Positions 1 through 62,206 of a stretch of DNA of 64,000 nt are shown here, in pieces. The DNA comes from Blasia pusilla (Eukaryota). The notes under the pieces are model-generated. The model was not told the DNA's origin. It did no database searches and saw nothing but the letters and a program-made list of their open reading frames with translations. Location: contig CM114271.1 in the NCBI GenBank assembly GCA_050084515.1, positions 16,616,001 to 16,680,000 on the forward strand. Direction: 5' to 3'. Position 1 is the first letter of the stretch. Each line of letters starts with the position of its first letter. Position numbers and translations under genes: made by a program.

Positions 1-665
1 CAATTAAACCCTAAACGGGCACGTCGTATTGGTGCCGTGTATGGCTCGGGGGCCGTCCACTCCACTCCATCGGCACTACAGAACGCCGGAGTCGTGACTT
101 TATCACTGCAGACCAGACCGTCGTTTTGGCGTTTCCCAGTCGTGCGAGCTCGCGAAGCGAAACGTAGTCGACCTCAGTAATCATCCGATTACTGGGTCCT
201 CGAATTGGGCAGTACTATTATTATGACGGGAAAGTCGAATTAGGGGTGACTGGCTGGCTCGCTAGCTGTTGCTCTCTGTTGCTTTCGTCGTCCCAGTTGT
301 CCGGCTGTTGGGAGGAAGAGGGTGGGGGGGTTGGGTCGGGGGCAGTGCGCCGCTAGCGCTTCCTTGGTTTAGAGACTGAGGTGAAGAGAAGAGAAGCGAG
401 GGCGGCAGGCGAGGCTGCCTTTGAGTGATTCGCCGGCCATCGACAGCGGATGGAGACGGAGGGAGCGGAGGTGTTCGGATGTGTCGATGACCGACGAAGA
501 GAAGATGTAAAGGATGACTACGGGATCGGGATCTGAGGGCCGATGGACATAGAAGGCTGGTGATTGGTGAGGAGGAGGAGGGGCGGGAGGAATGCTGTAG
601 AATTGCGCGTGGGAAAAAGAGGAGAAGATCACAGGGGCGCTAGGGGCGTGGAGTGATTTGTGGAA

Positions 666-1445
666 ATGGAAATTCCAGAGTGCTTCAAGGCCATGCTGAA
701 CGATTCGCCATTGTTGTGGAAGTCGGTGGCTATGTTTATGGTAGTGTATTTGTTTGGGTATTGGGTGATTTTCAGGAACTGGAAGGGCAGGCCTCGATAC
801 GATGCAGCGAGTTGCGGGATATCTCTTGCGCATGGAACGCTTGTGGCTCTTTTGGCAGCGCAGGACATTTTTTCGACGGAATGGAAACTGGACGCGGTTA
901 ATAGCGATAGGCAGAAGAAGATCATGGAGTACAGCATGGCCTACTTTATTGTGGACTTGATGAACTACATGTACGCCGCTCCGGATGACTTCCTTTTCAT
1001 CGGGCATCACATTGCCACTCTCACGTATATGTTCTCCTGCCGTTATTACACGGGCTATGGTGCTACTTCGGTCATGTGCCTGATAGCGGCCGGTGAGATA
1101 ACTAGTCCTGTGCAAAATGTGTGGACTCTGGCGCGAATGGCCCGGACGGAGTCTCCTTTGGCAAAACGAATTTACATTTCCTTGTCTCCCTTCTTCACCT
1201 TTTACTTTACGCTTGTGCGCGGAGTCTTCGGGCCCTATTTGGTTTATGAGCTCGGGAAATTCTACCTGGTAGGGAAGGCAGATGCCGTGGTGCCAAGGTG
1301 GCTGGCGTATTCGTGGATGTTCAAGATGTCGTTTGCCATTCTTGGGAGCATTGTGTGGGTGTACAAACTTTGGGTTGGGTTGGCCAAATTCTACAGCACG
1401 AAACGGGAGAGGCAAGTCGAAGACGCCACGAAGAAAGCTGCGTAG
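666..1445 (+). CDS. TLC (TRAM/LAG1/CLN8) domain membrane protein, single exon
   Basis: Hydrophobic multi-TM ORF with TLC-type motifs (YFIVDL, FIGHH, GEITSPVQN). First ATG at 666 within ORF 660..1445. Confidence 0.85.
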   Translation: MEIPECFKAMLNDSPLLWKSVAMFMVVYLFGYWVIFRNWKGRPRYDAASCGISLAHGTLVALLAAQDIFSTEWKLDAVNSDRQKKIMEYSMAYFIVDLMNYMYAAPDDFLFIGHHIATLTYMFSCRYYTGYGATSVMCLIAAGEITSPVQNVWTLARMARTESPLAKRIYISLSPFFTFYFTLVRGVFGPYLVYELGKFYLVGKADAVVPRWLAYSWMFKMSFAILGSIVWVYKLWVGLAKFYSTKRERQVEDATKKAA

Positions 1446-4400: not shown

Positions 4401-4946
4401 TGAGGCATTTTTCCAAGTCTCCAAAACATAAATTTAGTGGTAGTTTAGCTATAATGCTTTCACAAAATACAAGTAGACCACTCGTAAACTTGCAAGAACC
4501 ACACTCGAAAACCACTCACAATAAGCGAGTGAATTTTGATTCCATAATCACATTTTCCTACACAAGCAACATACTCAAAAGTTGAACTTGATGTACTTGC
4601 AAAATTGCAAAAAATTGTTGATATTTGCAAAATTGTGAGTGTTGAATTCCCCAAAGTACTCAAAATCTTGTTTTTTAGAAGCAAATATATTGAAATTTAG
4701 TCATTCAATTCGATGATTCTTTCACATAATTTATTTTCTTCTTCCCCAAACTACCAACTCGTCTTATGTTACTCATGTACACCTATTGTGCTATATGGTT
4801 GTCTACAAAGGCATACAACTTTGGTAGGTGCAAGTGCGTGTACATCCTGCATCTACTTCTATGTGGGTTCATATAGACTTAGTGCCCTCCAAAGGCCGAG
4901 AAGGGCTCACATCACCTGATCAACTCCGTGAACATCTACATTCATT

Positions 4947-5702
4947 TGTCGTGCACATACACATCATTACACAACATACATAGCTATCACTGAACACACA
5001 CACAAACACGCACGATCCCATGCTAACTCATGGCATCCAAACAACCAGACAAGAAGTACCAAAATATCTCCAATAAAGTAAGATCCAATCTCTCTCTACA
5101 CAATCTCACACCATAGCTCTCAAAGGTGTGCACTCTCTCTCATGTCAAACCAAACCCACTCTCCTAATGAGAGGCTTGGGTTACACTCACAAGGCAAGGG
5201 ACCATAGCTCCGCCGCCTCATGCCAAGAGGTTCAACAAAGAAAGAATGAGCTCTCAAGCTCTCTCTCCTTGGGATACATACCCCCTCCCCTCTCCCAAGC
5301 TCTCTCCATGGTAACCTATTCTCCCAAGTCATCTCTTTGGCTCTTGACCTGATGTAGGAGGTCAAGGATCACTTACCAAAAATAGAAAGTCGATCATATA
5401 CTCAAAATGGTACTTACCTAAAATAGTAAGTTCCTCAATATGGCTCCAAATGAACCAAAACGGGGGGGAGGGGGGGGCCTCAGCAGGTCATCCTCGACCT
5501 CCTAGGCCTGTCCTCCACTACTCTTGAAGACGCTCTACTAGATCTCACCGATCTATCCTAAAGGACGTGACAACTATGGTACGCATACACATCGCTACAC
5601 AACATACATCGCTATCACTGAACACACACACAAACACGCACGATCCCATGCTAACTCATGGCATCCAAACAACCAGACAAGAAGTACCAAAATATCTCCA
5701 AT
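4947..5702 (-). repeat. 3' terminal repeat block of copy 1: A (4947-5074), B (5075-5572), 2-bp spacer, A (5575-5702)
   Basis: 4947 starts TGTCGTGC and 5572 ends GACGTGACA. 5575-5702 repeats 4947-5074. Confidence 0.9.
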
Positions 5703-5712
5703 CGCCCCCCTA
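5703..5712 (-). promoter_or_regulatory. Polypurine tract of copy 1
   Basis: Minus strand reads TAGGGGGGCG directly before A. The same tract is at 20449-20458 (+) and 62974-62983 (-). Confidence 0.7.
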
Positions 5713-5888
5713 GCTCGTGGTTAGGTCCCTCTAACTCTAGATAGCCATCTATCCCTACCTACCATGACATACATCTCTCAGACGCTAAGAGCAAGAAGGT
5801 CGGGTGCTCATATGGCCCCATCGTTAGTTGCCTTCCTCTCATCCATGTCAGAGAAAAAGTCGGGATCGAAACCTACCTAGTATCTCCT

Positions 5889-6215
5889 CTATGTACATCT
5901 GGGACATATCCATCGTCCCCGAGGAATCCTAGTGAGAGGTGGCGTCAGACATGCCATATGCCAACCTCTCGAACAACCATCACATACTAGCATCGTGGCC
6001 GCACCACGGGCAGAACCACATAACATACGACGCAAGCCTGCAAGAACTACTGCTAAGCTCGGATCCACTATACTATCAATGTTAGGAAGGTGACATGGTG
6101 CATAATTACGCACATGGTCCTTCCATACCATACCATCGCGTCCCTCCAGCAAGAGAACACCGGATGGCAAAACGTCACGCACTCTCAGGATAGTGCGCCC
6201 TGCAGTCACATCCAA
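5889..6215 (-). pseudogene. Integrase C-terminal extension with PHD finger
   Basis: (C)MLC...CDGC...WHMAC...WICPRC matches the C4HC3 PHD pattern. The first Cys is Arg in this copy but intact in copies 2 and 3. Confidence 0.88.
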
Positions 6216-6230
6216 CGTTGTCAGTGCCGT

Positions 6231-7150
6231 CTACTGCAAGTAGACATAATCTCCCTGATGAGACCTCCGGATAGTTGGTCGATAACCACCACCCCGAATA
6301 GTCGCATACCTCAACGTATCCTGATGTTGCGCAATCGTCAAGTTCTCGAACGCCATGGGCATCACTCTCTGAAATAACTCAGCCCTCTGAGAACATGCTC
6401 GCACCCATACATCTGGGTCATCAAGGTCAAGCACCTCATCAGCATCTCGACGAATGGCCGTAGGTAAATCTGGCTCTTGGCCATAAAGTAGCAAGTACGG
6501 TGAAAAAGACGCTAAGGATGCCTGCCTGCTGAATCTGTATCCCATCGCCAACCATGGCAAGTGGAGGTCCCAATCTCCTAGGTGACCTCTCTGCAAGCCA
6601 TACTTGCGTAAACCCCTCTTCACCGTCAGCACAACTCTCTCCGCTAATCCATCTGCCTTGGGATGATCTCGCGAAGTCGTGCGGTGGTCGATCAGCGCTT
6701 GATCACACAAGGCTTGGAACTCACCCCGAAACTCGGTACCCTGGTCTGTCAACACCTCAGCCGGTGCGCCATAATGACTTAGCACTCTGTCAAGGAAGGC
6801 ATAAGCTACTCCCTCACTTGCTTTGTCAAGCAATGCAACCAACTCGATCCACTTCGACAAGTGCTCGACCATCACCAACACATAACGACTGTGACGCTCT
6901 GTCAAGGGCAAAGGTCCTGCAAAATCCAAACTCCATCTATACCCTAAGCCCATGATCAGTAATGGATGCAACTGTGGAGTCGGAGCATTGAACGATGCTC
7001 AGACCCAATCACACACCATGCACCTGGCAACAAACTACTGAACGTCAGTCTGCATGCCTCGCCACCAATACTGAATCTGGAGCAAGCTGTACGTCCGCTT
7101 CACCCCAAAGTGACCCAACTCCTCGTGGGCATGCTGCACTAGTCGTGCTC
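6231..7150 (-). pseudogene. DDE integrase (HHCC plus rve core)
   Basis: HEELGH...CMVC zinc finger, then WSLDF, TDQG and AERV catalytic motifs. Confidence 0.92.
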
Positions 7151-7519
7151 TCTGCGAAGAATGCGGCACTACGCGTACTCTGCCATCCTCCCAAACCGTC
7201 AAAACATGTGTCCCCTCCCAACGGAACCGTCTGGCCCGCTGTAGGATCCGATCTCGCTCTCTAGCACCCATTGTGCTTGCAACGCTGCCAATACGAAGGT
7301 ACTCCAAGACTTCTCCATCATAATGAATATCTCGGCCACCTGTCATCTCCTCACTGGCCTCGGGATCCAAGGACTCCCCATTAGACCTCGCCATCAAAGT
7401 TTCCACACTTTGGCTCTCCATAGCCAACATGCCTAAATAGGCTGACGCGTGCCATCCTGGCACCGACTCCTCATCACTGTCTCCATGCCATCTAGCTCCA
7501 GTCGCATCTCGCTGACTTG

Positions 7520-8900
7520 GGCATGGGTTACAACTCAACCCATCTGCATCTTGGTTGAGCATCCCAGGTCTATGTACAACCTGAAAATCATACTCCTGCA
7601 ACAAAAGAGCCCATCTCGCAAGTTTCCATATAAGCTTGTCGGACTCCATCAACCACTTCGAAGTGGTTGATGATCGGTGATGATGGTAAAGGGGTTGACG
7701 AATAAGTAACACCTGAAATGCACGACAACCCACACCGCAGCCAACCACTCACCCTCATACGAGCTGTACTTCGCCTCTACAGCGTTTTTCGAGTGGCTAG
7801 CGTAATCCACCACGAACTCTCTACCCTCATCATCATGTTGGGTGAGCACCGCTCCAAGCCGCAACATGCTCTAATCTGTGTGCAACTGGAAAGGACGCCC
7901 ATTGATCGGTCTCCTCAAGATGGGCGCAGACGTCAACCTGTACTTGAGCAACTGAAATGCTCGCTCCTGCTCATCCCCCCACTACCACTCGTGATCCAAA
8001 GGTCAGTGGCTTTGCAATCGAACAGAATCCCTTGACGTATCGCCAATAGAAGTTCGCCAATCCCATGAATGTGCGAACCCGGCTCACATCTGTAGGGCAT
8101 GGAATGCGTGAGATAGCCTCTACCTTTGTTTGTTGAACACCAAGGCCCCCTGGGTACATCGTATGACCCAACTACTCAATCTGGCTGTAGAAGAACTTGC
8201 ACTTGCCAGGATGTAGCTTCAGCCCATGTAATTGCAATCGTCGAAACACCTCCTCTAGATGTTGCTCATGCTCCTCAACCGTGGCGCTAAAGACTACGAT
8301 ATCATCAATATAACACCTAGCAGAATCCAGACCAGCCAAGATCCTATCCATCACCCTCTGAAACTCAGCCGGGGTGTTCTTTAACCCAAATGGTAAGAAC
8401 CGCCACTGGTACAAACAATCCTTCCCGTGAGGATCGATGCCCCAAAATTCCGTCTTCTGCCTGTCCTCCAATCTGATAGGCAACTGATGGTATCCGGCTC
8501 GCAAATCCAATGAACTGAAGACCTTTGCGTGTTCAATCGCATCAAAGATCTCCTCACGGGTGGGCATGGCATACATATCGGACTTCGCCTGCCGATTGAT
8601 AGGTCGGTAATCCCCACACATCTGCCTATCCGTCCAATTGCCATGCACATCCTTCTTGGCGGACATGACAGTGGCAGATGCATACTCCCCATGCGACATC
8701 TCCACTAATTCTGCTCTGACCAAGTCCTGGCTCCTACTCTGAATCAGAGCCCTCTCCATATCACTGTACCTGTAGGGTCGTCGGAAGATCGGCGTATCAC
8801 TCCACTACTCAATGCGGATCCCCGGTCCCTTCAGCATACCCAAATCCTCCATGCTAAACGCAAAGCAGCTCCTATAACTCCTGAGGAACTAATGTATTCG
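7520..8900 (-). pseudogene. Reverse transcriptase and RNase H (gypsy type)
   Basis: MCGDYRPIN, LDLRAGYHQ, LPFGLKN, YIDD; RNase H motifs LGAVLTQ and TDHQPL. Confidence 0.95.
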
Positions 8901-9279
8901 GCGCCCCCCTCCTCCTTTCAACTTAGGGCCCATATCTGGCTCCCAAGTCTCCATCGTGACTACGGTAGGACTCTCCGGCGCGGGTATCGATGGTTGCTAT
9001 GGTGCAACCCCGTCTCGAACAACAACACTCGGCCGCTCTCCTGCAGCCAACTGCAAACTCTGATCTCCTCCACGTGCCGTGCCCGAAACCACACTCGATG
9101 TTGTGGCTATCATCTCCTTGCGTACCTGGAAAACATCCCAAGAAGTCCAAGGGTGTCTCTCCCGATCTCCTCGGGTCTCGCCCCCAGCCACTGCCTCCAC
9201 CGTCTTGGTAGGCATGGGGCTCACCAACGCAACCGCTGTGATCTGTCGCGATCTCATACGACGCTGTTCAGCCACTTCC

Positions 9280-10226
9280 AAGGTGAGGATCCATGTCAAG
9301 CAGTTCAGGTCCATCGCCTGACCCAAGACATGGCGTCGTGATGCCTGTAACATTGATGGTACTGCCGTCACTCCTATGGGAAATACCATCACTCGCTCTC
9401 TCTCGTTGGCGTTGGGCTCCACTAACCGCTGAACCTGGTCATCCCAAACCAAGTCAGGAGCGGCCTCCTTGTATGCATAGGAAGCGGGAAAACTCACAAA
9501 CGTGGGCAAGGCTGCCCTCGGCCTGCCTACCCTGTTGACCACAATCAACGGTGGTCGATCATCGTGCCTCACTGCCTGTGATCGACGACCTGTATCCAAA
9601 ATGGAATCCACTAACAAATGGGAGGGGCGCTCCACTCTCGCATACGTCCTCCGTAACACCGCATGGGGCATCAAGTTGGTCCACCATAGACACGGGCGAT
9701 GGGCTCTAGAACCTACACTCGCCGCATCCAAGAACACTGCTGGGCCAATCCAGGCACACACCTGATGAGCACTCGTCACCACCCGTGACCGGGAGTCTCC
9801 TAAGATCGGCACATTCTCCAGAACGTAGGCTGGAGAATGAGATTGGTGCTCCTGCAACTTTCGTAAGACCCTCAAAATCTCCCAAAATAACTTGGACCGA
9901 GTGTCAGCCAACCCGTTGCCTTGTCCAGCACTCGATTGGCCCTGACATGGCCAACCGGAAATGACCAAATCAATGGTCCCTACCCGCTCTAAGTCCTACG
10001 CCCCCAACAACAAAATATCCCTCGGTAGGGAACTGTGATATCCTAGTACTGCGGACGCAGACAATAAGTCGGGAAAACGTAGGCGTAATTGTGCCACATA
10101 TCGTAGTGAGACGCGCCTCGCAACATCATCACTCTCCACATACAAGCACTGTTGTACTTGCACTCTTGCCTGCAAAATAGTAGCTAACCCGATGCTAATC
10201 CCTTTAAAGAGATCTAACACTCGAAT
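9280..10226 (-). pseudogene. DNMT3-like C5 cytosine methyltransferase domain within pol
   Basis: Motifs I (VLDLFKGIS), IV (GWPCQ), VI (LENV), VIII (AHRPCLWWTNL), IX (ERERVMVFP) and X (RRHVLGQAM) in order. One internal TAG at 9996-9998. Confidence 0.9.
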
Positions 10227-10645
10227 ACCCTCCTCCGGGGTACACCACACAATGGGTGTGGTATCCAAGGGTGTCATCGTAGCACTCCCTACTACCTCGG
10301 GTTCCTCAGACCCGTCACGCTCCGGTGCAAACGCCTCGCTCCACGTGGTCTGCACGTGCTCATCTGCCAATCTTCGAAGCTCCTCAGTCGAGCCCCACAT
10401 TGGCACCTCTCCTCCACGGAATGATGCACCTACCATAACACTCCTCTCCATAGAAATGTCAGGAATGGGAGTATCCTCTGCATGGACATGTCCTCAATCA
10501 AATCACTAGGCCAAGTGATGGCACTGCTAAATGCTGCTAAGGTCGCCATCTCTCCTGGCCGTTGCTCGATCACTACACCTATGAATCAAATGGGTAATGA
10601 GCTAAGGCGCCCATCACCTGACTGCCATCCTGGTCTGTAGGACGC

Positions 10646-11060
10646 TCACTCCTCCCAGTAATCCATGGAAAACCGCAACGGGTATAACACTCCTCCACCA
10701 ACCAAGACGTCGTAGGACTCTACATCTGTCACTATTGCCTTGGCGCGCACCACAGACTCATCAGTAGGATGTCCCGAGCGAATCCTCATCATGACCTCCT
10801 GTCGGGTGATATACTGTGTGGTACTCGCTCCACCCAAGGATGTCTGTATCCGGAATGGACAACGCTCCACATCGGCTCTTATTAAGCCCAATCCTCTGAA
10901 TGACGCTTTCCCCAACATCATGGGTTGCGCTCCTGAATCCAACAAGACGCGTTGCGGACTAAAATCTCTACCTCCACGACTCACCAATTGAAAGACCTCT
11001 CCTCGGTTATCCAGCAACACAACAGCAGGAGAAGCCATGGCACGCTCTATCGCGGGTCTA
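10646..11060 (-). pseudogene. Retropepsin aspartic protease
   Basis: VLLDSGAQ active-site motif and a downstream YDVLVG motif. Confidence 0.8.
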
Positions 11061-11849
11061 GCGAGCATCTCCGCCATTCTAGCAGCCACAGCCTCCCATG
11101 AATCCGACGTGGACGGTCCGAGCATCCGCTCCAAGGGCAGGTCCATCACCTCCTCTGCAATCACCTCTGAACGTGATGCAGGAACTCCAACTCTACGCTC
11201 ACATAGCGACGCGGCCAGCCGAAAAGCCTCGGCGGGTGTACACCCCAACGTCATAACATCGGAAGTAGAAAATAAAAGAGTGCGGTACACAACGGTGGCC
11301 GCCCCCAACAATGTGCTTGACACATGCCCCTCCTGAGAATCAACAATAGGAGTCGTCGCACTCGCTTCTCCCATCGCCCTCCGTGCCTGCACACCAACAA
11401 CATCACCAACTCTCAAGGAACTTTGATGAGGATCCATCGATGGGGTCCTCATCGCTTCGGACAACGTGAAAGACTGAGGAAGCCTAGTCTATTTTCTGCT
11501 TCCCCTTGTTGTGGATCCAACTCTGTGGCTGCTCCATGCGTCACAACTGTGGCGGCCTCCATCTGGGCAACCCCGCACATCCAACCAGGATCCTCCAGAT
11601 CTCTAGCCGCTCCATATGATGTCGATGCCACGGATCCGGCATCGGGTAATCTCAATGCCATAGCGGCAATCTGCTCCTGTAGTTGGTGTATCTGAGTAGC
11701 CATCCCAGCCTCACGTCCGGCGTCTCTCTCGGCGCGTCTAGGTGGTGGTACTCTACCTCCTCCACGGGCAGCTCCACCACCCTGTCAGGCAACTCGAGAT
11801 CCTTGACCCCCAACGGGACCACCTGGTGCACGATCTCTAGGCCCACCCG

Positions 11850-13080
11850 GACCGGCTACTCGCTCTGGTGCCCTCTCTGGCCCTCGGTCCGAACGTAATT
11901 CAGGATGTAAACTAAAATACCTGGCGCATGTATGACCATACCTCTGACAATAGTCACACTGATAACCTCCTTGTGCAGCACCATCTCCTCCTCCATGCTG
12001 AGGCATACGTCCATGACCATAACGAGTGCAATGGCTGATGATGGGCTCCGCCACATGACCAACAAGTAATAGTAGGCGGCTACTGTTGAGCTGCATATGA
12101 AGGCGCAGGTCTCTGTGCCACGGGCTCCCAATATCCTCCCTCAGCTCATGGTGCCACAATTGACCTATCTCGGAATTCACGTTGCTGCACAGGTGGTGGA
12201 GCCAATCGCAACTCCTCTCGCCCAGAACCCATGGTGGCTACGCTCTCCTCCGCCATGTTGCGCTCAATGTTCTCGGCGGTCCTAAAAACATCTCTCAACG
12301 TAGGGGAGGTGTTCATAAGAAGCACCCCCTCCCACACCCGTGGCCGCAAGGTCTGGTCCAGCATCGCGTACCATGACTGGATAGCCTGAGCCTCTGTCAC
12401 CCCCTGAGTGACATTGATCAACCCGCGCAAGCGAGTGTAAGCCTCACGTAAACTCTCACCCGGGTGCCTCTGGAAGTTGTGGATGCTCCGCAACTTTTCC
12501 GTCCGTACCCCTTGGTAGCTCACCCTCAACTCAGCAAAGAACTCAACCACGGGGTTGAACGTGGGACGAACCTGACTAGACGGTGCAACTGCTCCAGTGC
12601 GAGTGACCCCTCCTAAAACATCACTAGTGGAAGAGGAAGTAACCCCTCATGACTCCTCCTCCTCATCTGGGAACGGCTCCGTCCATAACACATAGTGTGG
12701 GTTGTAGTGGAGTCCTGGGCAAATCTGTGGGAAAACTCATGGTAATCGTCCATGGGTGCCCCCTCTAAATGCTGGAACAAACCGTTCCATGTTGTAAACA
12801 GGTTTAACTCTCTAGAGTTCTTGGCCTGCTGGGAGTCGCACCAACTCCTAAACTCTGCTATGAAATCGTGCAACTCAATCGTACCTACTGCACCTGAAAA
12901 CCTACGCGGTCCTCTACCCTAGTCGTCCATCTCGTACGCCCAACTGGTAGGACCACTCACAATGTGTGGCGATGTGCTCACAAATTCCTCTACACCCTCC
13001 CCCTCGTCTGACGATGACACAGAAGGAGGTCGAGGTGGTCCCTGAAGTGAAGACTCTCGGAAGCTCACGCCACTCCGCGT
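11850..13080 (-). pseudogene. Gag remnants with degenerate zinc knuckle
   Basis: FQRHPGESLREAYTRL gag-like segment and CDYCQRYGH knuckle, split over several frames. Confidence 0.7.
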
Positions 13081-14029
13081 AAAACCTCTAGAGCTACTCT
13101 CGGGTTCACCACCTGGCCTCTCAAAGTCCCAAACGGAGGCCGTGATGACCCTCGTGCCTTACTCACCCGATCACTCTTGCCTCGCGAGTAATCCCTCAAT
13201 CACTCATCCCCAACATGTGGCACTCGATCTACACTCTCCCCCCAAACCTTTTACGTGCGGCAATAAGCGGCGTGGTACGGCAAATCGACTAAGCTATCAT
13301 CTCATCGACAACCTACCCTCAACTCCGGACATCCCACACAGGTCTATGTCCCCTAAATCACATACATAAATGATGCTCTCAGCATCCACACACCCAATAT
13401 CCCCAAATAAACTACCCAAATCCCAGAATCCCTCACACGTGCAGGGTAAAGGACCAAATGGGTAACCTGAACACATGTCAATGTCGCTCCTCAGCAACTG
13501 CGAATCTCAACCCCAACTCGGTCGTGGAGACAACTCCTCCAATCAGCAAGTCATACACCTCCCGTACTAACGTTGCTCAAAACTCCTCGGTAGATGGTGC
13601 AGTTCCAGCGGAACGGTGCAGCGTTGCAGGCAGCACGGAACGGCACGGCCCTCAATGATGGGATGCGGCACTCGGCGGCATACCCTCCTCAATCAACAAT
13701 AAACCCACACTCTCCTCCACAATGCCGGAGCGGCTCCGCGATCAAGACGGTGTGGTGCGGTCACGAGCGGCACGGCGCGGCAATCGGCGGCGCGTTGCAG
13801 CTACGGGCGTCACGGCACGGTACTCGATCGTCGTTCAGCGGCTACCAATCACAACATAGCAGCAGGAAATCAAAATTCAAACACTATAACATGAGGTCAT
13901 ATGCATCACATGTTGATGACGGTGGCGGCCAAAACAAAGTACGTGATGGCGATGAAAGTCCGAGAATCAACGAACGTTGTGGAAAACCCTCCACTCCGTA
14001 ACGGCGGCAATGGCAACCAAGGGTGGACA

Positions 14030-14210
14030 ATGGACGGTGGACCATTAACGGTGACGGTTGACCGTTGATGGTGACGGATGAACGGTGACGGTGACGGACG
14101 AACGGTGACGGTGATGATTGACCGTCGTTGGTGACGGTTGACCATTGACGGTGACGGTTGACCATTGACGGTGAAAGTTGACGGTTGACAGTGACTATGA
14201 CAGCGACGGC
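14030..14210. repeat. GACGGT/GACGGTTGACC short tandem repeats in the element leader
   Basis: Repeated gacggtgacggttgacc units seen directly. Confidence 0.8.
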
Positions 14211-14814
14211 CGTCGCCGATGTGGCGGCTGGTTTAGGGTTTACATAATTTAACCCTAAAAATCGCCTAGCAATGGCAGTTTTGCAAGATTGACCATAACT
14301 TTTTGCTCGCAACTCCAAATTGCAAAATATTTATTGCACAGCGTGCACAACTTTACGATCTATGCCAGCATCAAAAAATATTTGGAATAAAAAATTCCAG
14401 TAAAAATTGACAAGGACTATCGTAAAGCCCAATGTCTCTTTCTTCTACCCAACTTTCGGCAGCGCTTCCGCGCTGATTCCTCCCAACAAAAATGTAAAAC
14501 CTGTAAAAATGCAAATCACCAAGCTACATGGTGCTCCCAAAAGCACCGGCATGGGGCAACCCGCCCCCATACTCAATCCCTATCAGAAATTGGGCATCGC
14601 TTCCGCGTGCCACTCTTCCACACGAAAAATCGGCAAATGCAAAGAACAATCCAAGCAACCCTTGCTCCGATGAGCACTCCCATGAGCCGTTGAACGGGGA
14701 ACACGTTCCCCAACCTGCAAAAACAGCGAGTGACCAACGAGCTCCCCCATGAAGCTCTCTCACTCTCTCATTCTCGCATTCTCTCTTTCTCTCATTCTCT
14801 CATTCTCTCTTTGT

Positions 14815-15131
14815 AAAGTAAGATCCAATCTCTCTCTACATAATCTCACACCATAGCTCTCAAATGTGTGCACTCTCTCTCATGTCAAACCAAACCCACT
14901 CTCCTAATGAGAGGCTTGGGTTATACTCACAAGGCAAGGGACCATAGCTCCGCCGCCTCATGCCAAGAGGTTCAACAAAGAGAGAATGAACTCTCAAGCT
15001 CTCTCTCCTTGGGATATTTACCCCTCCCCTCTCCCAAGCTCTCTCCATGGTAACCTATTCTCCCAAGTCACCTCTTTGGCTCTTGACCTGATATAGGAGA
15101 TCAAGGGCTACTTACCAAAAATAGAAAGTCG
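14815..15131 (-). repeat. Truncated 5' B repeat of copy 1
   Basis: Matches 5075-~5391. Not followed by A on the internal side. Confidence 0.9.
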
Positions 15132-18100
15132 CTAGGATGGCGGAGATGCCCGCTAGACCCGCGATAGAGCGTGTCATGGCTTCTCCTGGTGTTGTGTTGC
15201 TGGATAATCAGGGAGAGGTCTTCCAATTGGTGAGTCCCGGAGGTAGAGCTTTTAGTGCGCAATGCATCTTGTTGGATTCAGGAGCGCAACCCTCGATGTT
15301 GGTGAAAGCCTCATTCAAAGGATTGGGCTTGACAAGAGCCGATGTGCAGCGTTTTCCATTTCGGATATAGACATCCTTCGGTGGAGCGAGTACCACACAA
15401 TATATCATCCGACAGGAGGTCGTGTTGAGGATTCGCCCGAGACATCCTACAAATGAGTCCGTGGTGCAAGCCAAGGCAATAGTGATTGATGCAGAGTCCT
15501 ATGACGTCTTGGTTGATGGAGTAGTGTTATATCCAGTAGGGTTTTTCCTGGATTACCGGGAGGAGTCAGCATCCTATAGACCAAGATGGCTCTCTGGTGA
15601 TGGGTGCCTTAGCTTATTACCCATTCAATTCACAGGTGCACTGATCGAGCAACGGCCAGGAGAGATGGTGACCTCAGCATTATTTAGCAATGCCATCACT
15701 TGGCATAGTTATTTGATTGAGGAACATGTCCATTCAGAGGATACTCCCATTCCTGACATTTCTATGGAGAGGAGTGTCATGGTAGCCGCATCGATCTGTG
15801 GAGGAGAGGTGCCGCTTTGGGGTTCGACTGAGGAGATTCGACGCTTAGCCATTGAGCATCTACAGACCGCGTGGAGTGAGACGTTTGCACGAGAGTGTGA
15901 CAGGTCTAAGGAACCCCAGGTAGCCAAGACTGCTGCTATGACCCCTTTGGATATCACCCCGATTGTGTGGTGCATCCCAAAGAAGGGTATTTGGGTGTTG
16001 GATCTCTTTGGAGGGATCAGTATTGGATTAGTTGCTATTTTGTAGGCTGGAGTGTGCATGCACGAATACCTGTAGGTGGAGATTGATGATGTTGCAAGGC
16101 GCGCTTCACTTCACCATACCATGTGGCACAGTTACGCCTCCATTTTCCCAACTTGTTGTCTGCGTCCGCCATTCAGGGTTACTAGAGTTCCCTACCAAGG
16201 GACATTTCATTGTTGGGGGCGCATGACTTGGAGCGGGTAGGGACCATAGATTTGGTCATTTCTAGTTGGTCGTGTCAGGGCCAATCGCGTGGTGGACGAG
16301 GTAGCGGGTTAGCTTATACTTAGTCCATGTTATTTCGGGAGATGATGGGATTTTGCGACACTTGCAAAAGCATCACTCCCATTCTCCAGCATACATTCTA
16401 GAGAATGTGCCGATCTTGGACGATTCGAGGTCACGGGTGGTGACGAGTGCACATCAGGTGCGTGCATGGATGGGCTCATCAGGGTTTTTGGATGTGGCAA
16501 GTGTAGGTTCAAGAGCACACCGCCCGCGTCTTTGGTGAACCAATTTGGTCCCACATGAGGTTTTACGGAGGGCGTATGCTAGCGTGGAGCGCCCCTCCAA
16601 TTTTTTGGTGGATTCTATTTTGGATCCAGGTTGTCAATCAGAGGCAGTGAGGCACGATGATCAACCGCCGTTGACTGTGGTCAATAGGATTGGCATGCCA
16701 CGGGCAGCCTTTCCCATATTTTTGAGTTTTCTTGCTTCATATGCATTTCAAGAGGCCGGACCTGGCTTGGTTTGGGATGACCAGGTATAGAGGTTGGTGG
16801 AGCCCAACACCGATGAAAGAGAGCAAGAAATGGGATTCCCCATAGGAGTGATGGCAGTACCGTCACTATTAGAGGTATCACGACGTCATGTCTTGGGATA
16901 GGAGATGGACCTGAACTGCTTCATATGGATTTTCAGCTAAGGCATAGCTGAGCAGCGTCATTTGAGGATGCGACATATCACAAATGTTGCATTGGTGAGC
17001 CCCATGTCTACCGAGATGGTTGAGGCAATGGCTAGGGGCAAGATGTGAGGAGATCGACACGCCAAGGGTGATTGGGAGAGACACCCTTGGACTTCTTGGG
17101 ATGTTTTGCAAGTACGCCAGGAGATGATAGCCACAGCATCGAGCGTGGTTCCGGGTAATGCACGTGGAGATGAGAATCTGTTGTCTGAGATGGGGTTGCA
17201 CCATAGCAACCACTAACACCTGCGCTGGAGAGTCCTACCGTAGTCACAATGGAGACTTGGGAGCTAGATATGGGCCCTAAGTTGACAGGAGGAAAGCGGC
17301 GCCGGATACACCAGTTCCTTAGGAGTTATAGGAGTTCCTTTACATTTAGTATGCATGATTTGGGTACGCTCAAGGGTCCAAGGATCTGCATTGAGTTATC
17401 GAGTGACACACCGATCTTTCGACGACCCTACAACTACATTGACATGGAGAGGGCTCTAATTCAGAGTAGGAGCCAAGACTTAGTTGGAACAGGACTAGTG
17501 GAGATGTCGCCTGGAGAGTATGCATCTGCCCTTTGTCATGCCCGCCAAGAAGGATGTGCATGGCAACTGGAGGCATAGGCAGATGTGTGGAGATTACCGA
17601 CCTATCAATTGGCAGACAAAGTTCAATAGGTATGCCATGTCCACCCCTGAGGAGATCTTTGATACGATTGGGCATGCAAAGGTCTTCAGGTCATTAGATT
17701 TGCGAGCCGGATTCCATTAACTGCCTATCAAATTGGAGGACAGGCAGAAGACGGCATTTTAGGGCATCGATCCTCACAAGAAGGATTGTTTGTACAAGCG
17801 GCGGTTCTTACCATTTGCTTTAAAGAACGCCCCGGTTGAGTTTCAGAGGGTCATGGATAGGATCTTGGCAGGTCTGGATTTTGCTAGGTGTTATATTGAT
17901 GACATCGTAGTCTTTAACGCCACAGTTGAGGAGCATGAGTGATATCTAGAGGAGATGTTTCGACGATTGCAATTACATGGGCTGAAGCTACATCCAGCAA
18001 GTGCAAGTTCTTGTACGACCAGATTGAGTAGTTGGGTCATACAATATACCCAAGGGGCCTTGGTGTGCAGCAAATGAAGGTAGAGGCTATTTCACGCATT

Positions 18101-20586
18101 CCACGCCCTACAGATGTGAGTCGAGTTCGTGCATTCATGGGATTGGCGAACTTCTATCAACGATACGTCAAGGGTTTTAGTTTGATTACAAAGCCGCTAA
18201 CCTTGCTGACCAAGATGGATCAAGAGTGGCACTGGGGGGATGAGCAGGAGAGAGCATTTCAGCTGCTCAAGGATATATTGACATCCGCGCCCATTTTGAG
18301 GAGACTGATCAGGGGGCGCCCTTTTGAGTTGCATACCAATTGGAGCATGTTGGGGCTTGGAGCCGTGCTCACCCAGCATGACGATGATGGTAGAGAGTTT
18401 GTGGTGGCTTATGCTAGTCGCTCGAACAACGCTGCAGAGGCAAAGTATAGCTTGTATGAGGGTGAGTACTTGGCTGCAGTGTGGGCTCTTGCACATTTTA
18501 GATGTTATCTATTCGGAAATCCCTTTACCATCATTACTGATCATCATCCACTTAAGTGGTTGATGGAGTCCGACAAGCTTATAGAGAAGCTTGCGAGGTG
18601 GGCTCTTTTGTTGCAAGAGTATGACTTTGAGGTGGTGCATAGACTTGGGACGCTCAACCAAGATGCAGATGGTTTGTGCCGTAACCCATGCTAGAGTCAT
18701 CGAGATGCGATTGGAGCTTGTTGGCATGGTGAGAGCGATGAGGAGTTGGTGCGAGGATGGCACGCGTCAACCTATTTGGGCTTGTTGGCTTTGGGGAGCC
18801 AGATTGTTGAGACTTTGATGGCGAGGTCTGATGGAGAGTCCTTAGATCCAGAGGCAGGTGAGGAGACGACAAGTGGCCGAGACATTCACAACGATGGACT
18901 AGTCTTGGAGTATATGCGTACTGGCAGCGTCACGAGCACAATGGGTGCTAGAGAGCGCGATCGGAGCGCGAGTTTGGGAGGATGGTAGAGTGCGAGTGGT
19001 GCCTCATCCTTCGTAGAGAGCACATTTGGTGCGTCATGCCCACGAGGAGTTGGGTCATTTTGAAGTGAAGCTGACGTACAGCTTGCTCTAGATTCAATAT
19101 TGGTAGCGAGGCACGCAGACTAACGTTCAGCAATTTGTTGCCAGATGCATGGTGTGTGATCAATTCTGAGCATCGTTCAATGCTCCGACTCCACAATTGC
19201 ATCCACTTCCAATCATGGGTTTAGGTTATAGATGGAGTTTGGATTTGCAGGACCGTTGCCTTTGACGGAGCGCCATAGTCGTTATGTGTTGGTGATGGTC
19301 GAGTACTTCTCGAAGTGAAAAGAGTTGGTTGCATTGTCTGACAAAGCAAGTGAGGGAGTAGCATATGCCTTCCTAGATCAAGTGTTGAGTCATTATGGCG
19401 CACCAGCTGAGGTCTTGACAGACCACGGTATAGAGTTTCGCGGGGAGTTTCAGGCCTTGTGTGATCAGGCGTTGATCGACCACCGTACCACTTTGCGAGA
19501 TCATCTTGAGGCGGATGGACTAGCGGAGAGGGTTGTGCAGATGGTGAACAGAAGATTACGCAAGTATGGCTTGCAGAGAGGTCACCTAGGAGATTGGGAC
19601 CTTCAGTTGCCGTGGTTGGCAGTGGGATACAGATTCAGCAGGCAAGCATCCTTAGCGTCTTTCTCATCGTACTTGCTTTTGTATGGCCGAGAGCCAGATT
19701 TACTTACGGCCATTCGTCGAGATGTTGGTGAGGTGTTGAACCTTGATGACCCTTATGTATGGATGTGAACATGTTCTCAAAGGGCTGAGTTATTTCGGAG
19801 AGTGATGCCCATGGCGTTTGAGAACTTGGAGATTGTGCAACATCAGGATACGTTGAGGTATGCGACTATTCGAGGAGGTGGTTATTGACCTACTATCCGG
19901 AGGTTTCATCAGGGAGACTACGTCTACTTATAGCAGACGGCACCCACGACGTTGGATGTGACTGTAGGGCGCACCATCTTGAGAATGCGTGAGATTTTGC
20001 CATCCGGTGTTCTCTTATTGGAGGGACGTGATGGTATGGTTTGGAAGAACCATGTGCGTAACTGTGCGCCATATCATCTTCCGAACATTGACGATACAGT
20101 TGATCCAAGCTTAGGAGTAGTTCGTGCAGGCTTGAGATGTATGTTGTGTGGTTCCGCTCGTGGTGCAGCCACTATGCTAGTCTGTGATGGGTGTTCGAGA
20201 GGATGGCATATGGCATGTCTGACGCCACCTCTCACTAGGGTTCCTGAGGGACGATGAATGGGCCCCATATGTACATAGCGTTGGTAGTTCTACATTTCGA
20301 CTTGTGTCTATGACATGGATGACAAGAAGGCGAATAACGATGGGGCCACATGAGCATACGGCCTTTTTGCTCTTAGTGTCTGAGAGATGTATGTCATGGT
20401 AGGTAGGGATAGATGGCTATCTGGAGTTAGAGGGACCTAACCACCAGCTAGGGGGGCGATTGGAGATATTTTGATACTTCCTGTCTCGTTGTTTGGATGT
20501 CATGAGTTAGCATGGGATCGTGCATGTTTATGTGTGTGTTCGGTGACAACGATGTATGTTGTGTAGCGATGTGTATGCGCACGACA
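15132..20586 (+). mobile_element. Copy 2 of the DNMT/PHD gypsy element, 5'-truncated just upstream of the protease, ending in PPT plus A only
   Basis: Inverted homolog of ~5575-11082. DNMT ~15985-16940 (PC mutated to SC), RT/RH ~17430-18694, INT ~19020-19950, PHD ~20135-20277, A 20460-20586 ending GACA. Confidence 0.93.
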
Positions 20587-22233
20587 AGAGAAAAGAGAGA
20601 ACGAGGAAAAAAGAGGAACAGTGTCACCTACGAAGAAGGCTGGAGAAGAGCTATGTGCGTTATTCACTAAAGACTCCCGAGCCTCAACAAACAATCGAGA
20701 AAAACCCCAATCAAAAAATTGTTGGCATTTAGCTCGAAGGGCACTGGAAAGCATCACCTACAAAGAGAGAAGGAGAAGGAACCATGCAACGCAAATCAGC
20801 AATCAGCAACGTCGTGCCACGAATCACCAAAGCTTTGACGTCAAAACGCGATTCCTCGCCACCCGCAATACCAACAAACAAAGCGAAGGCCGCAACGACC
20901 GAGGCCCTTGTAGAAACCAAGAATCCGTCCCCACAAATTCAATCGGTGACGAAAACTTCATGCTAATCCGATCGATGGCCCGAACGACCATGTTTGCGCA
21001 AAGTGTTTGCATCCATCCATCCACTGTCGGTCGCTTCCGTCCATCTGGCCGATTCCGTCCATCCCTTACCTTCCGCCCTATTCCTTCCATCCTATTCGCT
21101 TCGTCCAACCGTCACCGCTCTGTCCATCCATTCTACTTCGTCCATCCTTCCCACTCTGTTCACCTAAACTCTCACACCTTCTGCATCTTAAGCGGGCCCT
21201 GATCCTGAACCTTGGGCGTGCAAACAGCCGAGCCACTTGCGGCTAGTCTACAGCCTAATGAATGAGTTTCCTAGGCTATCTATGGCCTTTGGTCCCTAGG
21301 GTGCATGGGATGGCCATGAAATTTGTTGTTATAATAAATTATTTAAAAGAAAACTGAAAGGTATTTTCACTCACCGGTTTGGCTGGGACGGTCACTACGT
21401 GACGACCTGACGCCACCCCTATCCGTCCGAATCTCCAGCTGGCTAGAGGTAATCTCCAGCCCAGTTTAGAGGCCCATTTTGGAGGTCCTCCCACCCGGTC
21501 CAGAGGAAGTTTACGGCACGCACGCGGAGGGTCGATGATGCGGCGAGTCGCAAGTCCGGAGTCCGGCGAGTCCCTCGAGCCAGAACCAGAAAGAAACGAA
21601 AGAGCCAGGGGACGGACTCCGGGTAATATTCTGATGGGACCAAAGAATGTTCTGTGTGGCCAATGTTGGGCGTTTCATGCCATCTGTGCATGTATGACGC
21701 ATACGAATCTAGGTTTCTCATTTCTTCTGCCGCTCACGGGCTCCCATTGCTTCTCAGCAGGTCCCACTCCGGTCATTTTGCAACAGCTCTTCCGGTTATT
21801 TACCGGACGAGTTCTTCGCTTCCAGATATTTTCCTGCTCCAAGGAAAGCTTGCCATGGTTTGATAACCTCCGGCTCTCCTATCACACGATAGGAGAGCCG
21901 GAGTCAAGTTCTTCATTTCAGGTCACTTGCCGGCCTTTTCCTCCCATTGTCTATTTAATCCCTTGCAGATTTAAGGAACAGTATCCGTTTTTCCCCCTCA
22001 TCACACTTTTGATCCAGTTTTTCTTGCAATAGCGGGTGAGATGGTCGATTGTTACCATGCCATGCCATGCCATGAGGATCATGGTCCCAGTCTGAAATAG
22101 GAGATCTAAAGACGAATCCCATTACAAACACGAACACAAGACACGGAGAAGAGGACGGGAGAGAGAGTGAGGGAGGAAGGGAAGCAGGGAGGAGACATAC
22201 AGAGAGTGGACCTGAGGAGAAGAGGGCGACGAG

Positions 22234-49404: not shown

Positions 49405-50050
49405 CCTAGCTCTCTGGCCTTCGCACTTAAGTCCTCACCTCCCTTGCTGCTTCCTCACACCAACCAGCGTGAGGCAGCGCTGCTGAAGATCGACAATGAG
49501 GAAGCCAAACTACCTGGCACCACAACCCATCAACGTGAAGCAACTCTACAACCAGAGAACCAAACTACATGGCACCACACCCCATCGGTGCCAAACTTTC
49601 ATTTATGCAAACATGGATTCCTAAAACACTTTCTTCCATACAACCCCCTACACTTGAGCTCGCCTCTCTCCCCCCAAATCTTCCTCACACATCTCAATTA
49701 CTAGCCGGGAAAAACTCATGACGGTTCTGTACCACCTTCTCTTACCACAATCTACTTCTGGCAGTGTGCGATATGGGTTTACCCTCAACCCTCCCTCCCT
49801 TCATCCTCCTCCTCTCTCCCAAGTGCGAAAACGAGGGAACACAAACGAAGCACGCCACTATATCGAGGGACGATCCTTCAGATAAGAACGGAGCCTGAGG
49901 CTTGAGCTCATGGGTGGGGTTTAGGGTACAGCGAAGGAGGAGTGGAGAAGGGAGTGTAAAGTGGGCTGTCGGTGACAGTCTCAACTGGTGAGGTAGGCCT
50001 ATCTTCCTTTCGCCATATTTTTTGTTCGAGACTGAGCGCAGCACACAGCT

Positions 50051-58888: not shown

Positions 58889-59301
58889 ACCCTTTATCCT
58901 AATAAGAGGCTTGGATTACTTATAAGGCAAGAAGAATCATAACTCTACTACCTTATGAAAGGGTCTTCAACAAAGAGAGAATGAGCTCTCAAGCTTACTC
59001 TCACTAACTATACTTCTTCACTCTCCCCTAACTTTCTTCTTGGTTAATTTGTGCACATGGGCCATCTCTTAGATTCTTAGCCTATAGTGGTGGATCAAGG
59101 GTCACTTTCCCTAACTGAAAAGTCAACTTTTCTCATAAAAGAAACTTATCCGAAATAGTAAACTTCTCTATAATCTGTAATTGATCCCAAACTAGGGGAA
59201 AACAAACTTTCTCAAGTTATCTTGGACCTCTTAAAGTTGATCTTTGACCTCCTTGAAGGTATCCTGCCCATACTTGTCGATATACTCCTAAAGACTTGAC
59301 A
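58677..59301 (-). mobile_element. Old diverged solo A-B unit of the DNMT-gypsy family, with expanded (CT)n at 58824-58887
   Basis: Colinear with 4947-5572 (accaaaatgtctccaat, cctaataagaggcttgg, ttcaacaaagagagaatgagctctcaagct) and ends GACTTGACA. Confidence 0.7.
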
Positions 59302-59741: not shown

Positions 59742-61885
59742 CTAGTACTATGGTGCCCGTGCGTTGCACTAGGCTCAAAAGATTGTGTTTACATCAAACA
59801 TACATATGTTGAATCAATGTTAAGGATGAATTTACACTTAATATATTGTGTCAAAATTCATATTTAATTTCAAAATTTAATGACATTGAACAACTTGACA
59901 ACAATTCATTCAAAAATTCCTTTATAAACAACATTGCGTATAAACACATCTTCACAATTCGATTGAATGTCATTTCCAGCCATAATATGTATCAAACTCC
60001 TTGTACCTACTCTAGATAAGGCCACATACAATGGCCATGAGAAAACACATTTGTGGGCAAGTATATGCCCACCTTTCGAAATGTTTGACCTTGAAATTTG
60101 TTAAAAGTCATGGCAAAAGATGGTTGTATTGGGAATTGAAATCTTTGTTAATCAAATGGAAGGCCCGAGTCAAAAGAAACCAATGGAATCCGAGGAATAA
60201 AAATTTGATCTCCAATATGGCTCCCTATCACGATTTCAGCATCTATAATAGTTTGAGAAAATCCTCAAATTACCAACCTGGTACCATTTTCTTGTCCTTT
60301 AGCACCATTAATGTTTCTGAGTAACATGATGGGAGCACCAATTTTCAAGGTTAGACGAAGCGGCGGCAAACCAGATGGAAGACACGTGTTCAAAAACTTT
60401 GTAGGATAGATGTGACTCATTCCATTATCTGATATTGAGTCATAACTCAAGTATGTATGTTCCTGTAGACGCACGCAAGCACATAAACATTAGGTTGATA
60501 CAATATTTTTAGTACAACATGTAGTTGCATTGTTTCTGTTACACAAACTAAAAAAATTACCACTTTCTTACCTCTTCTTAGCATGGCGACATCACTTCAG
60601 AATTGATTTCATCCACATCCGTGTTTCTTGGAGTCAATACAGCAGTGTCTCGTAGAAAGTGAACATCTTTAAATTTGTCGATATCATTTCCATATACTAC
60701 TGCAATAAGGTCACTTTTTTTCTTCTCTTTACATACCATATCCAACGGTACTTCAATGATGTCTTATCCTAAGTTACGATGAACCTGCTCACGACCTTCT
60801 CCCACTTGAAATAACCAATTCGTATTTCTTGTTGATGGAGACCTATCTCCCCAATTAAATTTTAAACTCTCATGTTTGTTGTAAGTTTCATCAACCTCAC
60901 ATGAGACCAAAATGATGATCTCTTGATAGTTGCACGTAGAATTTATGGTCGATCACCATGGAAAACTACAAGGACTTGCCAAAAATCTCCATAATTTTTT
61001 TTAATTTTCCACCAAATGGCAGCTCTCTAAGTTTTTCACATACATGTCATGCGCATACACATTGCTACACAACATACATCGCTGTCATCGAACACACACA
61101 CCAACACGCACGATCCCATGCTAACTCATGGCATCCAAACAATGAGACAAGAAGTACTAAAATATCTCCAATTAAAGTAAGATCCAATCTCTCTCTACAC
61201 CATCTCACACCATAGCTCTCAAAGGTGTGCACTCTCTCTCATGTCAAACCAAACCCACTCTCCTAATGAGAGGCTTGGATTACACTCACAAGGCAAGGGA
61301 CCATAGCTCCGCCGCCTCATGCCAAGAGGTTCAACAAAGAGAGAATGAACTCTCAAGCTCTCTCTCCTTGAGGTATACCCCTCCCCTCTCCCAAGCTCTC
61401 TCAATGGTAATCTATTCTCCCAAGTCACCTCCTTGGCTCTTGACCTGATGTAGGAGGTCAAGGGCCACTTACCAAAAATAGAAAGTTGATCATATACTCG
61501 AGATGGTACTCACCTAAAATAGTAAGTTCCTCAATATGGCTCCAAATCAGCCGAAACGAAGGGGAAACCTGCTCTCTCAGGTTTCCCGAGGCCTCAACAG
61601 GTCATCCTCGACCTATTGAGCATGTCATCCACTACTCACGAAGGCGCTCTACTAGATCTCATCGATCTATCCTAAAAGACGTGACATACGACTCCCAGAA
61701 TATCTTGAAGAGTTCGATTGACACCCTCAAATGCATGGCAATGAGCCATAGGTGCCTCATCCCATTTAATAATGATTGCATTTTGAATGACACGTGCCTC
61801 TTCACTATTAATAGATATCCTATACGTGGAGGTTTCATTCAACGTAATAGGAATTTTATAACTTGAATATGTTGTACGTCCACCT
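59742..61885 (-). mobile_element. Helitron 3' remnant (Pif1-like helicase fragments), interrupted
   Basis: LPSGLPP...LKIGAPIMLLRNI...NGTRL and ELPFGGK. 3' end has a GTGCAACGCAC hairpin and CTAG|T at 59742. Confidence 0.85.
61045..61686 (-). mobile_element. Solo A-B unit (TGTC...GACA) with 4-bp TSD
   Basis: Near-identical to 4947-5572, flanked by TACA/TACG. Removing it restores Helitron helicase coding sequence. Confidence 0.9.
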
Positions 61886-62206
61886 TGTCGTGCGCATACA
61901 CATCGCTACACAACATACATCGTTGTCACCCAAGATACACACAAACACGCACGATCCCATGCCAACTCATAGCACCCAAACACAAAGGCGAGAAGTACCA
62001 TAATATCTCCAATAAAATAAGGTCAAATCTCTCTCACAACACCATAGCTCTCATATGTGTGCACTCTCACATGTCAAACCAAACTCACTCTCCTAATGAG
62101 AGGCTTGGGTTACACTCACAAGGCAAGGGACCATAGCTCCGCAGCCTTGTGGGAGGAGGGCTACGTTTAAGGTATCGTGTGCATACACATCGCTACACAA
62201 CGTACA
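61886..62206 (-). repeat. Partial terminal-repeat fragments (A plus part of B; then a short A start at 62173)
   Basis: Homology to A and B, starting TGTCGTGC at 61886. Confidence 0.8.

Follow-up and report, generated by a model that had tools for sequence, protein, structure and literature searches.

The 64,000-nucleotide stretch of the Blasia pusilla genome analyzed here (GenBank assembly GCA_050084515.1, contig CM114271.1, forward-strand positions 16,616,001 to 16,680,000), referred to below as the window, carries on its minus strand a decayed Gypsy-type retrotransposon that itself encodes a reverse transcriptase (RT) and an RNase H together with a DNA methyltransferase (DNMT), and the question raised by this locus is what would prime its reverse transcription. 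An earlier note on this DNA had proposed self-priming as in the fission yeast element Tf1, based on an inverted repeat that joins the end of the 5' repeat, called A1 here, to the predicted start of the transcript. Judging from the sequence analyses reported below, the segment 14814->14800 of the minus strand is probably the primer-binding site (PBS) of this decayed Gypsy-DNMT3 element, with the element's own RNA as the primer. The features concerned are as follows.

14975..14989, minus strand: proposed self-primer, TCATTCTCTCTTTGT on the sense strand of the element, at or near the predicted RNA 5' end
14800..14814, minus strand: proposed PBS, ACAAAGAGAGAATGA on the sense strand, its first base being the last base of repeat A1
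14777..14788, minus strand: second, partial PBS-like copy, AAAGAGAGAATG, with a 12-nt reverse-complement match to A1, at the GA-rich start of the leader
15014..15020, minus strand: TATA-like motif TAAATAT of putative function, 31 nt upstream of 14989
58970..58984, minus strand: exact primer motif in an old copy of repeat A that is 63-68% identical overall
61334..61348, minus strand: exact primer motif within the solo A-B unit 61686->61045; the motif recurs with 1 mismatch at 62499-62513

As the earlier note had stated, the plus strand of 14800-14814 (TCATTCTCTCTTTGT) was found to be identical to the minus strand of 14975-14989, which gives a perfect 15-nt inverted repeat with arms 160 nt apart. 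The TATA-like motif was likewise recovered, at 15020->15014 instead of the approximate 15016-15021 given before, and the retention of the primer motif in the old unit was borne out by the exact copy at 58970-58984. The 15-mer of 14975-14989 is thus present in other copies of the repeat as well, and in the old one it forms, with its flanks, an island of conservation. Over the whole window, nine matches to the 15-mer with at most two mismatches were obtained, compared with 0.44 expected from 100 shuffles. The pairing begins at the repeat boundary, namely, at the last base common to the 5' and 3' repeat copies (14814 = 5074).

The length of this match was assessed in an anchored test, in which the longest reverse-complement match to the 5' repeat was recorded for each of the 9082 positions downstream of the repeat. 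A match of 15 nt was obtained at 14814 only; the other values of at least 11 nt were nested there or in the partial copy 14788->14777, and the best unrelated match, at 8138, was 10 nt long. When the repeat was shuffled 5000 times with its dinucleotides preserved, anchored matches extended to 9 nt at most, and no shuffle reached 11 nt. Based on these results, the caveat that the region is of low complexity does not account for the pairing.

A primer site for a tRNA 3' end would begin with TGG, the complement of the CCA end. The first 65 nt past the repeat end in the window contain no TGG, which first occurs 66 nt into the leader, in agreement with the earlier statement that no tRNA-type PBS follows the repeat; in related elements, the first TGG lies approximately 22-25 nt downstream of the repeat end. 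A scan for tRNA genes yielded none in the window and none in 33 loci of relatives, and an Rfam search of 14300-15200 returned two sub-threshold chance matches only.

Relatives of the element were collected from a metagenome with a methyltransferase profile, by which 271 of 330 candidate stretches were shown to encode a relative, and the best 80 loci (designated by L numbers) were kept; a pattern scan of the metagenome with a 25-letter repeat motif gave no matches. The same geometry, with different primer and PBS sequences, was revealed in two other families of the lineage, namely, the main metagenome family and a third family seen in L054. In repeat A of the main family, TATAAAG is followed after 20 nt by ACATAGTTCTTTGAGT, and the leader, counted from the last A of the repeat, reads ACTCAAAGAAC...; L011 forms 15 Watson-Crick pairs and one G-U pair of 16, and the majority primer of the family (10 sites) forms 15 of 16 pairs with its majority PBS (16 sites). 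In L054, GACATTCTTGTCAAGT, positioned 26 nt after TATAAT, pairs at 16 of 16 positions with ACTTGACAAGAATGTC, which starts at the last A of the repeat. The A copy of L054 follows a polypurine tract (PPT) and a B repeat, and two units may be in tandem at this locus.

When the three families were aligned outward from the repeat-leader junction, all 16 pairs were kept and 13 of the 16 were changed on both sides, and the PBS began with the last A of the repeat in every family. As a register control, the arms were slid against each other: Watson-Crick pairs filled 41 of 42 cells in register, in contrast to 9-16 of 42 upon sliding by 1-3 nt. The arms of the two further families are not of low complexity. 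Covariation of the two segments, which the earlier note had named as a check of its proposal, was thus found across the three families, and self-priming is supported in silico by a pairing that is conserved with compensatory change at the repeat end. Exact complementarity, the position at the repeat boundary, the distance from a TATA-like motif and the retention of the pairing, through compensatory change, in two other families are all directly observed.

The motif taken for a TATA box lies 31 nt from the start of the primer segment in the window, 26 nt in L054 and 27-33 nt in the main metagenome family, and the relatives carry TATAAAG or TATAAT at offsets of -26 to -33. A scan for a TATA motif combined with an inverted repeat including the terminal A of the repeat retrieved L003 and L054 only, plus a few AT-rich chance matches. 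Within repeat A, the PBS sequence was also found to recur immediately before the primer segment or in overlap with it; together with this segment the copy forms a local hairpin straddling the predicted transcription start. This hairpin reads CTCAAAGAAC-ATA-GTTCTTTGAG in the main family and CTTGACTTGACA-TTCT-TGTCAAGTCAAG in L054, and the version in the window is weaker.

14990-15013, minus strand: PBS-like hairpin in the window
L071, about 5770-5800: the same hairpin
L054, 8823-8850: the same hairpin

The predicted RNAs were folded from the predicted start to just beyond the PBS, a check that the earlier note had suggested. In the minimum-energy folds of L054, L003, L011 and L047, the RNA 5' end pairs with the PBS, and in the ensemble of the window nucleotides 1-12 pair with the PBS region with a probability of 0.63-0.77.

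In the proposed mechanism, transcription would begin approximately 30 nt past the TATA-like box within the 5' repeat A1, and the RNA would fold back across about 160 nt, its initial 15 nt or so pairing with the PBS adjoining the end of A1. RNase H would cleave at the 3' edge of this duplex, after ...GU, and the freed 3'-OH would prime minus-strand strong-stop DNA through the last approximately 160 nt of A1, as in Tf1, with plus-strand synthesis being expected to start from the conserved G-rich tract that immediately precedes repeat B1. The transcription start, the RNase H cleavage and the priming itself are steps that we infer from the arrangement of these segments.

Several observations weigh against self-priming. 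The minimum-energy fold of the window pairs the RNA 5' end with internal GA-rich nucleotides 102-119 and not with the PBS, which is itself located among degenerate GA-rich repeats together with the second, 12-nt partial copy, and the primer motif in the 3' repeat copy A2 of the window (5235-5249) has one mismatch. In the main family, an uninterrupted match of at least 10 nt at the TATA-proximal site was found in two of 16 5' junctions (L003 and L011), and the copies keeping the site (n = 10) hold 8-15 Watson-Crick pairs of 16. The primer region has gone from A1 by small deletions in six of the 16 main-family copies, and the corresponding deletion of the hairpin/primer region was seen in one of nine other copies (seven at a 3' end, the incomplete L011_3, and L020, whose context is unclear), a difference that is not significant by a rough estimate. 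The sole double change (L037) is not compensatory, and in L069 and L038 the PBS with the preceding CA matches 11 nt elsewhere, approximately 85 nt from the end of A. As to the counting itself, the helix partner was picked as the best match, and hence the pair counts are biased toward the helix, with neither the anchoring at the repeat end nor the TATA-like distance entering into that choice; the comparison covers three families only, the distant L078/L079 and L068/L077, whose contigs have no 5' ends, falling outside it. The main-family copies are all decayed and full of stops; the weak pairing within this family fits such decay, and covariation within the family is uninformative.

Three other explanations of the inverted repeat were weighed against self-priming. 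It might be the chance product of CT/GA-rich low-complexity sequence, given the CT/GA-rich composition of both arms, the degenerate GAGAGAATGA repeats at the start of the leader, to which the copy at 14777-14788 belongs, and a (GA)n run in the old copy; considering the shuffles described above, the uniqueness of the match among the 9082 positions, and the equivalent 16-nt pairings in two families whose arms are not of low complexity, this explanation is scarcely credible. Alternatively, a host tRNA, a tRNA half or another small RNA could bind 14814->14795, the match to the element's own repeat being secondary, and half-tRNA primers are indeed described in plant copia lineages (PMC6317226). The site, however, contains no TGG and differs among the three families, yet it always matches the repeat of its own family. 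Since a shared host tRNA would hold the PBS constant, this family-by-family change speaks against a host primer, which we consider very unlikely.

The two segments might also pair in the RNA as a long-range leader structure serving packaging, dimerization or translation control, or else to guide template switching or circularization, a role ascribed to the internal complementary or split repeats of DIRS-type elements, with the real primer being something else. In favor of such a structural helix, the A-internal-B-A-B layout of the element is typical of DIRS-order elements (PMC5890265), whose replication is believed to be unlike that of LTR (long terminal repeat) elements; the PBS-like copy with its local hairpin beside the primer segment suggests that the motif may have more than one pairing partner, and covariation demonstrates pairing, not priming. 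Against it, the first pair of the duplex falls precisely on the final base of the 5' repeat in all three families, and no alternative primer site is visible beside the repeat. Because the position of the repeat end is set by minus-strand initiation, a helix of another function would have no reason to sit there, and we regard a purely structural role as unlikely.

The component features of the element itself, all on the minus strand, are given below in sense orientation.

4948-15131: whole element, read from 15131 down to 4948
14815..15131: repeat A1, the 5' copy (called B in the earlier note), with the last 317 of approximately 498 nt left and cut at 15131
12919..14799: leader from the PBS to gag, approximately 1.9 kb, unique in the window except for GA-rich matches
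5889..12918: decayed coding region with gag including a zinc knuckle, protease, DNMT, RT, RNase H, integrase (H2C2 and rve) and PHD finger
8997-9995: C5 DNA methyltransferase (PF00145) between protease and RT
5889-6230: C-terminal PHD finger (PF00628), located where chromoviruses have a chromodomain
5703..5716: PPT, GAGCTAGGGGGGCG, directly upstream of B1
5576..5702: repeat B1, the internal copy, 97.5% identical over 119 nt to 5074->4956, with a mutated B|A junction after it
5075..5572: repeat A2, full length, starting with TGTCACG
4948..5074: repeat B2, with the 3' terminus ...CACGACA at 4948 and unrelated DNA beyond

The coding region, with the domain order gag-protease-DNMT-RT-RNase H-integrase-PHD, is broken into about 11 open reading frame (ORF) pieces, and the copy is dead. 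Pfam matches were obtained for the C5 DNA methyltransferase (PF00145), the RT (PF00078), the integrase zinc domain (PF17921), the integrase core (PF00665) and the PHD finger (PF00628); gag and protease gave no Pfam match and were recognized by eye in the translations. The integrase C-terminus carries the PHD finger in L071 as in the window, and no chromodomain match was found in either. The ORFs of the leader matched no Pfam family, and at 14013-14212 the leader contains tandem repeats, about seven copies of a 20-bp GACGGTGACGGTTGACCGTT-like unit.

Homology searches with the DNMT piece returned 87 proteins at E <= 1e-5, the best of which were 57-66% identical, the named ones coming from Sphagnum, Calypogeia, Marchantia and Riccia. 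RT homologs with the order RT-RNase H-integrase-PHD, with or without a DNMT, were found in Klebsormidium, Closterium, Marchantia, Calypogeia and Sphagnum, and the chromodomain-bearing RT homologs showed only 35-41% identity; two distant DNMTs on viral contigs (30-32% identity) were irrelevant. Judged by these sequence features, the element is of the Ty3/gypsy type and belongs to the streptophyte Gypsy-DNMT3 lineage, its DNMT being known as a PF00145 protein and not by Dnmt class. The lineage was described as KnitGypsy-Dnmt3 by de Mendoza et al. 2018 (PMC5890265) and appears under the name streptophyte Gypsy-DNMT3 in a 2026 preprint (bioRxiv 10.64898/2026.05.21.726589).

Instead of two LTRs, the element has the repeat layout A1-internal-B1-A2-B2, in which A1 is 95.6% identical over 319 nt to 5392->5074 and the motif AGCTAGGGGGG(C/T)GA directly before B1 is kept in relatives. 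Among the relatives, A followed by the leader was found at 16 5' junctions (L069/L071 and L024/L025 each being one insertion seen twice), none of which had B upstream of A1. At the 3' ends, B-A-B was found in seven loci (six independent insertions) and B-A running to the contig end in one, and B was followed by unrelated DNA in ten loci and lay at the contig end in two. The relatives begin with TGTCATG... and end with ...CACGACA, and the termini overall are TGTCAYG and CACGACA; in the window, the CACGACA terminus recurs with different flanks in a second element (20459-20587) and in a third region. Perfect 4-bp target duplications, namely, TACA in L015, CATA in L069/L071 and TCTC in L073, and others matching at three of four positions (L004, L037 and L047) flank A1...B or A1...B2. 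The canonical arrangement of identical LTRs at both termini with TG..CA ends and one target duplication was not what we found, as one terminus is formed by the start of A and the other by the end of B.

The copy at 14815-15131, called B in the earlier note, is truncated at 15131, where an inverted partial copy interrupts it, and given the split layout it is no classical LTR. The note's placement of the U5 end at the end of that copy is supported; the end in question is, however, that of repeat A and not of a classical LTR. Models derived from the window alone, in which the LTR was B+A, A+B or B+A+B, were dropped, since the relatives show A1...B1-A2-B2 with target duplications.

The internal B|A junction was read as CACGACA-NN-TGTCAYG in L011, L017, L032, L054, L057, L070, L073 and L078/L079, where NN is GC, GC, AC, GT, GC, AT, AT and GC, respectively, and with GC the junction is a near-perfect palindrome. 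PPT-B-A-B is present in the distant families L078/L079 (39% identity) and L068/L077 as well. Recombination of the type B x B or A x A could account for the B-only copies and the solo A-B unit; such recombination would keep the target duplication, and thus B-only and solo copies are no proof of A-internal-B insertion. In a 42%-identical relative, L075, positions 4793-5741 comprise a G-rich tract followed by two full tandem 469-bp units, approximately 2.8 kb upstream of the DNMT. The tandem unit has no TGTCAYG or CACGACA ends and may represent a different terminal arrangement.

In standard LTR-type reverse transcription, the PBS and the PPT mark the two ends of the cDNA. As the PBS adjoins the end of A and the PPT adjoins the start of B, the predicted cDNA is [B A]-PBS-internal-PPT-[B A], whereas the integrated copies read A-PBS-internal-PPT-B-A-B. 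The integrated form would thus be, by sequence, a circular permutation of the predicted cDNA with the circle opened at the B|A junction, the cause of which is unexplained. The A2|B2 junction is the sequence expected from joined cDNA ends, being precise in L004, L017, L032 and L069/L071 and variant in L070 and L073. If CACGACA-NN-TGTCAYG were nicked at both of its CA ends, the CA-3'OH ends would be recessed behind 5' overhangs of 2 nt, a form that an integrase could join to target DNA. It is therefore conceivable, though we put it forward tentatively and hold it to be the less probable case, that the lineage integrates from circular or longer-than-unit cDNA, with the DDE integrase opening the palindromic junction by two nicks. 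If true, this would make the element a retrotransposon that works partly in the manner of a pararetrovirus or an IS-element circle and possibly a functional bridge between LTR and DIRS elements. Several routes were also considered, namely, a 2-LTR circle, a unit-length pararetrovirus-like circle, strand-transfer concatemers and internal cleavage of linear cDNA, none of which alone explains the missing A-B-A-internal-B form (none of the 16 5' junctions). The misfit of PBS and PPT with the repeat layout thus raises the question of how an integrase-bearing retrotransposon makes and inserts an A-internal-B-A-B copy.

The proposed priming was further compared with known systems. In PMC4600332, self-priming is described as shown for Tf1 and as implicated from fungi to vertebrates, and that of Tj1 as accepted on a like in-silico criterion. 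With Tf1 and Tj1 the element shares a proposed PBS that adjoins the 5' repeat and is the complement of what is predicted to be a 5' stretch of its own mRNA (definition in PMC4600332), together with the apparent lack of a tRNA-type PBS, the Ty3/gypsy domain order and its own RNase H. Compared by features and not by a tree, it differs from the Tf1/sushi group in an integrase that ends in a PHD finger with no chromodomain, in a DNMT within Pol, and in repeats that are split (A...B-A-B) and not two identical LTRs, with a target duplication of 4 bp. The duplex also differs in length: that of Tf1 is 11 nt, in contrast to 15-16 nt in the Gypsy-DNMT3 element.

Among plant elements, self-priming was predicted by Neumann et al. 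2019 (PMC6317226) for 12% of the LTR retrotransposons surveyed, in the Tcn1 and TAR lineages, and since other plant lineages are thus already predicted to self-prime, the Gypsy-DNMT3 case would be a variant of a known mechanism. As described there, Tcn1-clade chromoviruses of mosses and club-mosses resemble it in their bryophyte hosts and in the in-silico inference from complementarity between PBS and 5' LTR, by which self-priming was also inferred for TAR of the Ty1/copia type. The element is set apart from the Tcn1 chromoviruses in that its nearest chromodomain-bearing proteins are 35-41% identical in the RT. The words "PHD" and "methyltransferase" are absent from the main text of PMC6317226, whose Additional files 1 and 5 (PBS types) might list such elements.

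KnitGypsy-Dnmt3 of Klebsormidium nitens has a DNMT inside a Gypsy-type Pol with an rve integrase, like the present element, and its DIRS-like A-coding-B-A-B layout is noted in a figure legend of PMC5890265. The phrase "primer binding" does not occur in the main text of that article, and PBS, PPT, termini, target duplication and junction palindrome, which are described here, were not found in it; nor did the literature searched treat the priming of the Gypsy-DNMT3 lineage, its termini or its target duplications. The A1-coding-B1-A2-B2 arrangement is shared with the DIRS-order elements PAT, Ngaro and SymbioDIRS-Dnmt3 (PMC4157794; PMC5890265, legend of Fig. 1e). In contrast to these, neither the window nor L071/L011 gave a match to the tyrosine recombinase family PF00589, and the lineage has instead an H2C2 and rve integrase, TG..CA termini and 4-bp target duplications.

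LTR finders that expect two identical terminal LTRs flanked by a target duplication would mis-delimit or miss such elements in bryophytes and charophytes. To our knowledge, self-priming has been established experimentally only for Tf1 and inferred mainly in the Tf1/sushi group and two plant lineages. Self-priming with compensatory change in three Gypsy-DNMT3/PHD families would widen the known range of the mechanism, and a concrete replication model is now on offer for the lineage.

Beyond the element, the window contains further copies of the family. At 15131-20592 on the plus strand lies an inverted, 5'-truncated copy that is head to head with the truncated A1, the inverted arms (10491-11083 and 15131-15723) being 80-92% complementary; it ends in PPT-B with no A-B after. 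A third copy is represented at 61045-64000 (minus strand) by its 3' end, which reads internal-B-A-B and is followed by a short duplication of the B end, beyond which lie a partial A and B, approximately 200 bp of foreign DNA and the solo A-B unit.

61686->61045, minus strand: solo A-B unit with the flanks CGTA/TGTA

A 40-residue fragment of a PIF1-like helicase was detected at 61690-61809 on the minus strand (PF05970, E 2.4e-06, 27.7 bits against a cut-off of 25.9), and this fragment between two repeat units may be the remnant of a Helitron. Likely pieces of host genes were identified at 657-1442 (plus strand), 46948-47931 and 48862-49434 (both minus strand) and 51169-52242 (plus strand), encoding a TLC-domain protein, a JmjC/cupin hydroxylase with an upstream F-box exon and an NmrA-like NAD(P)-binding protein.

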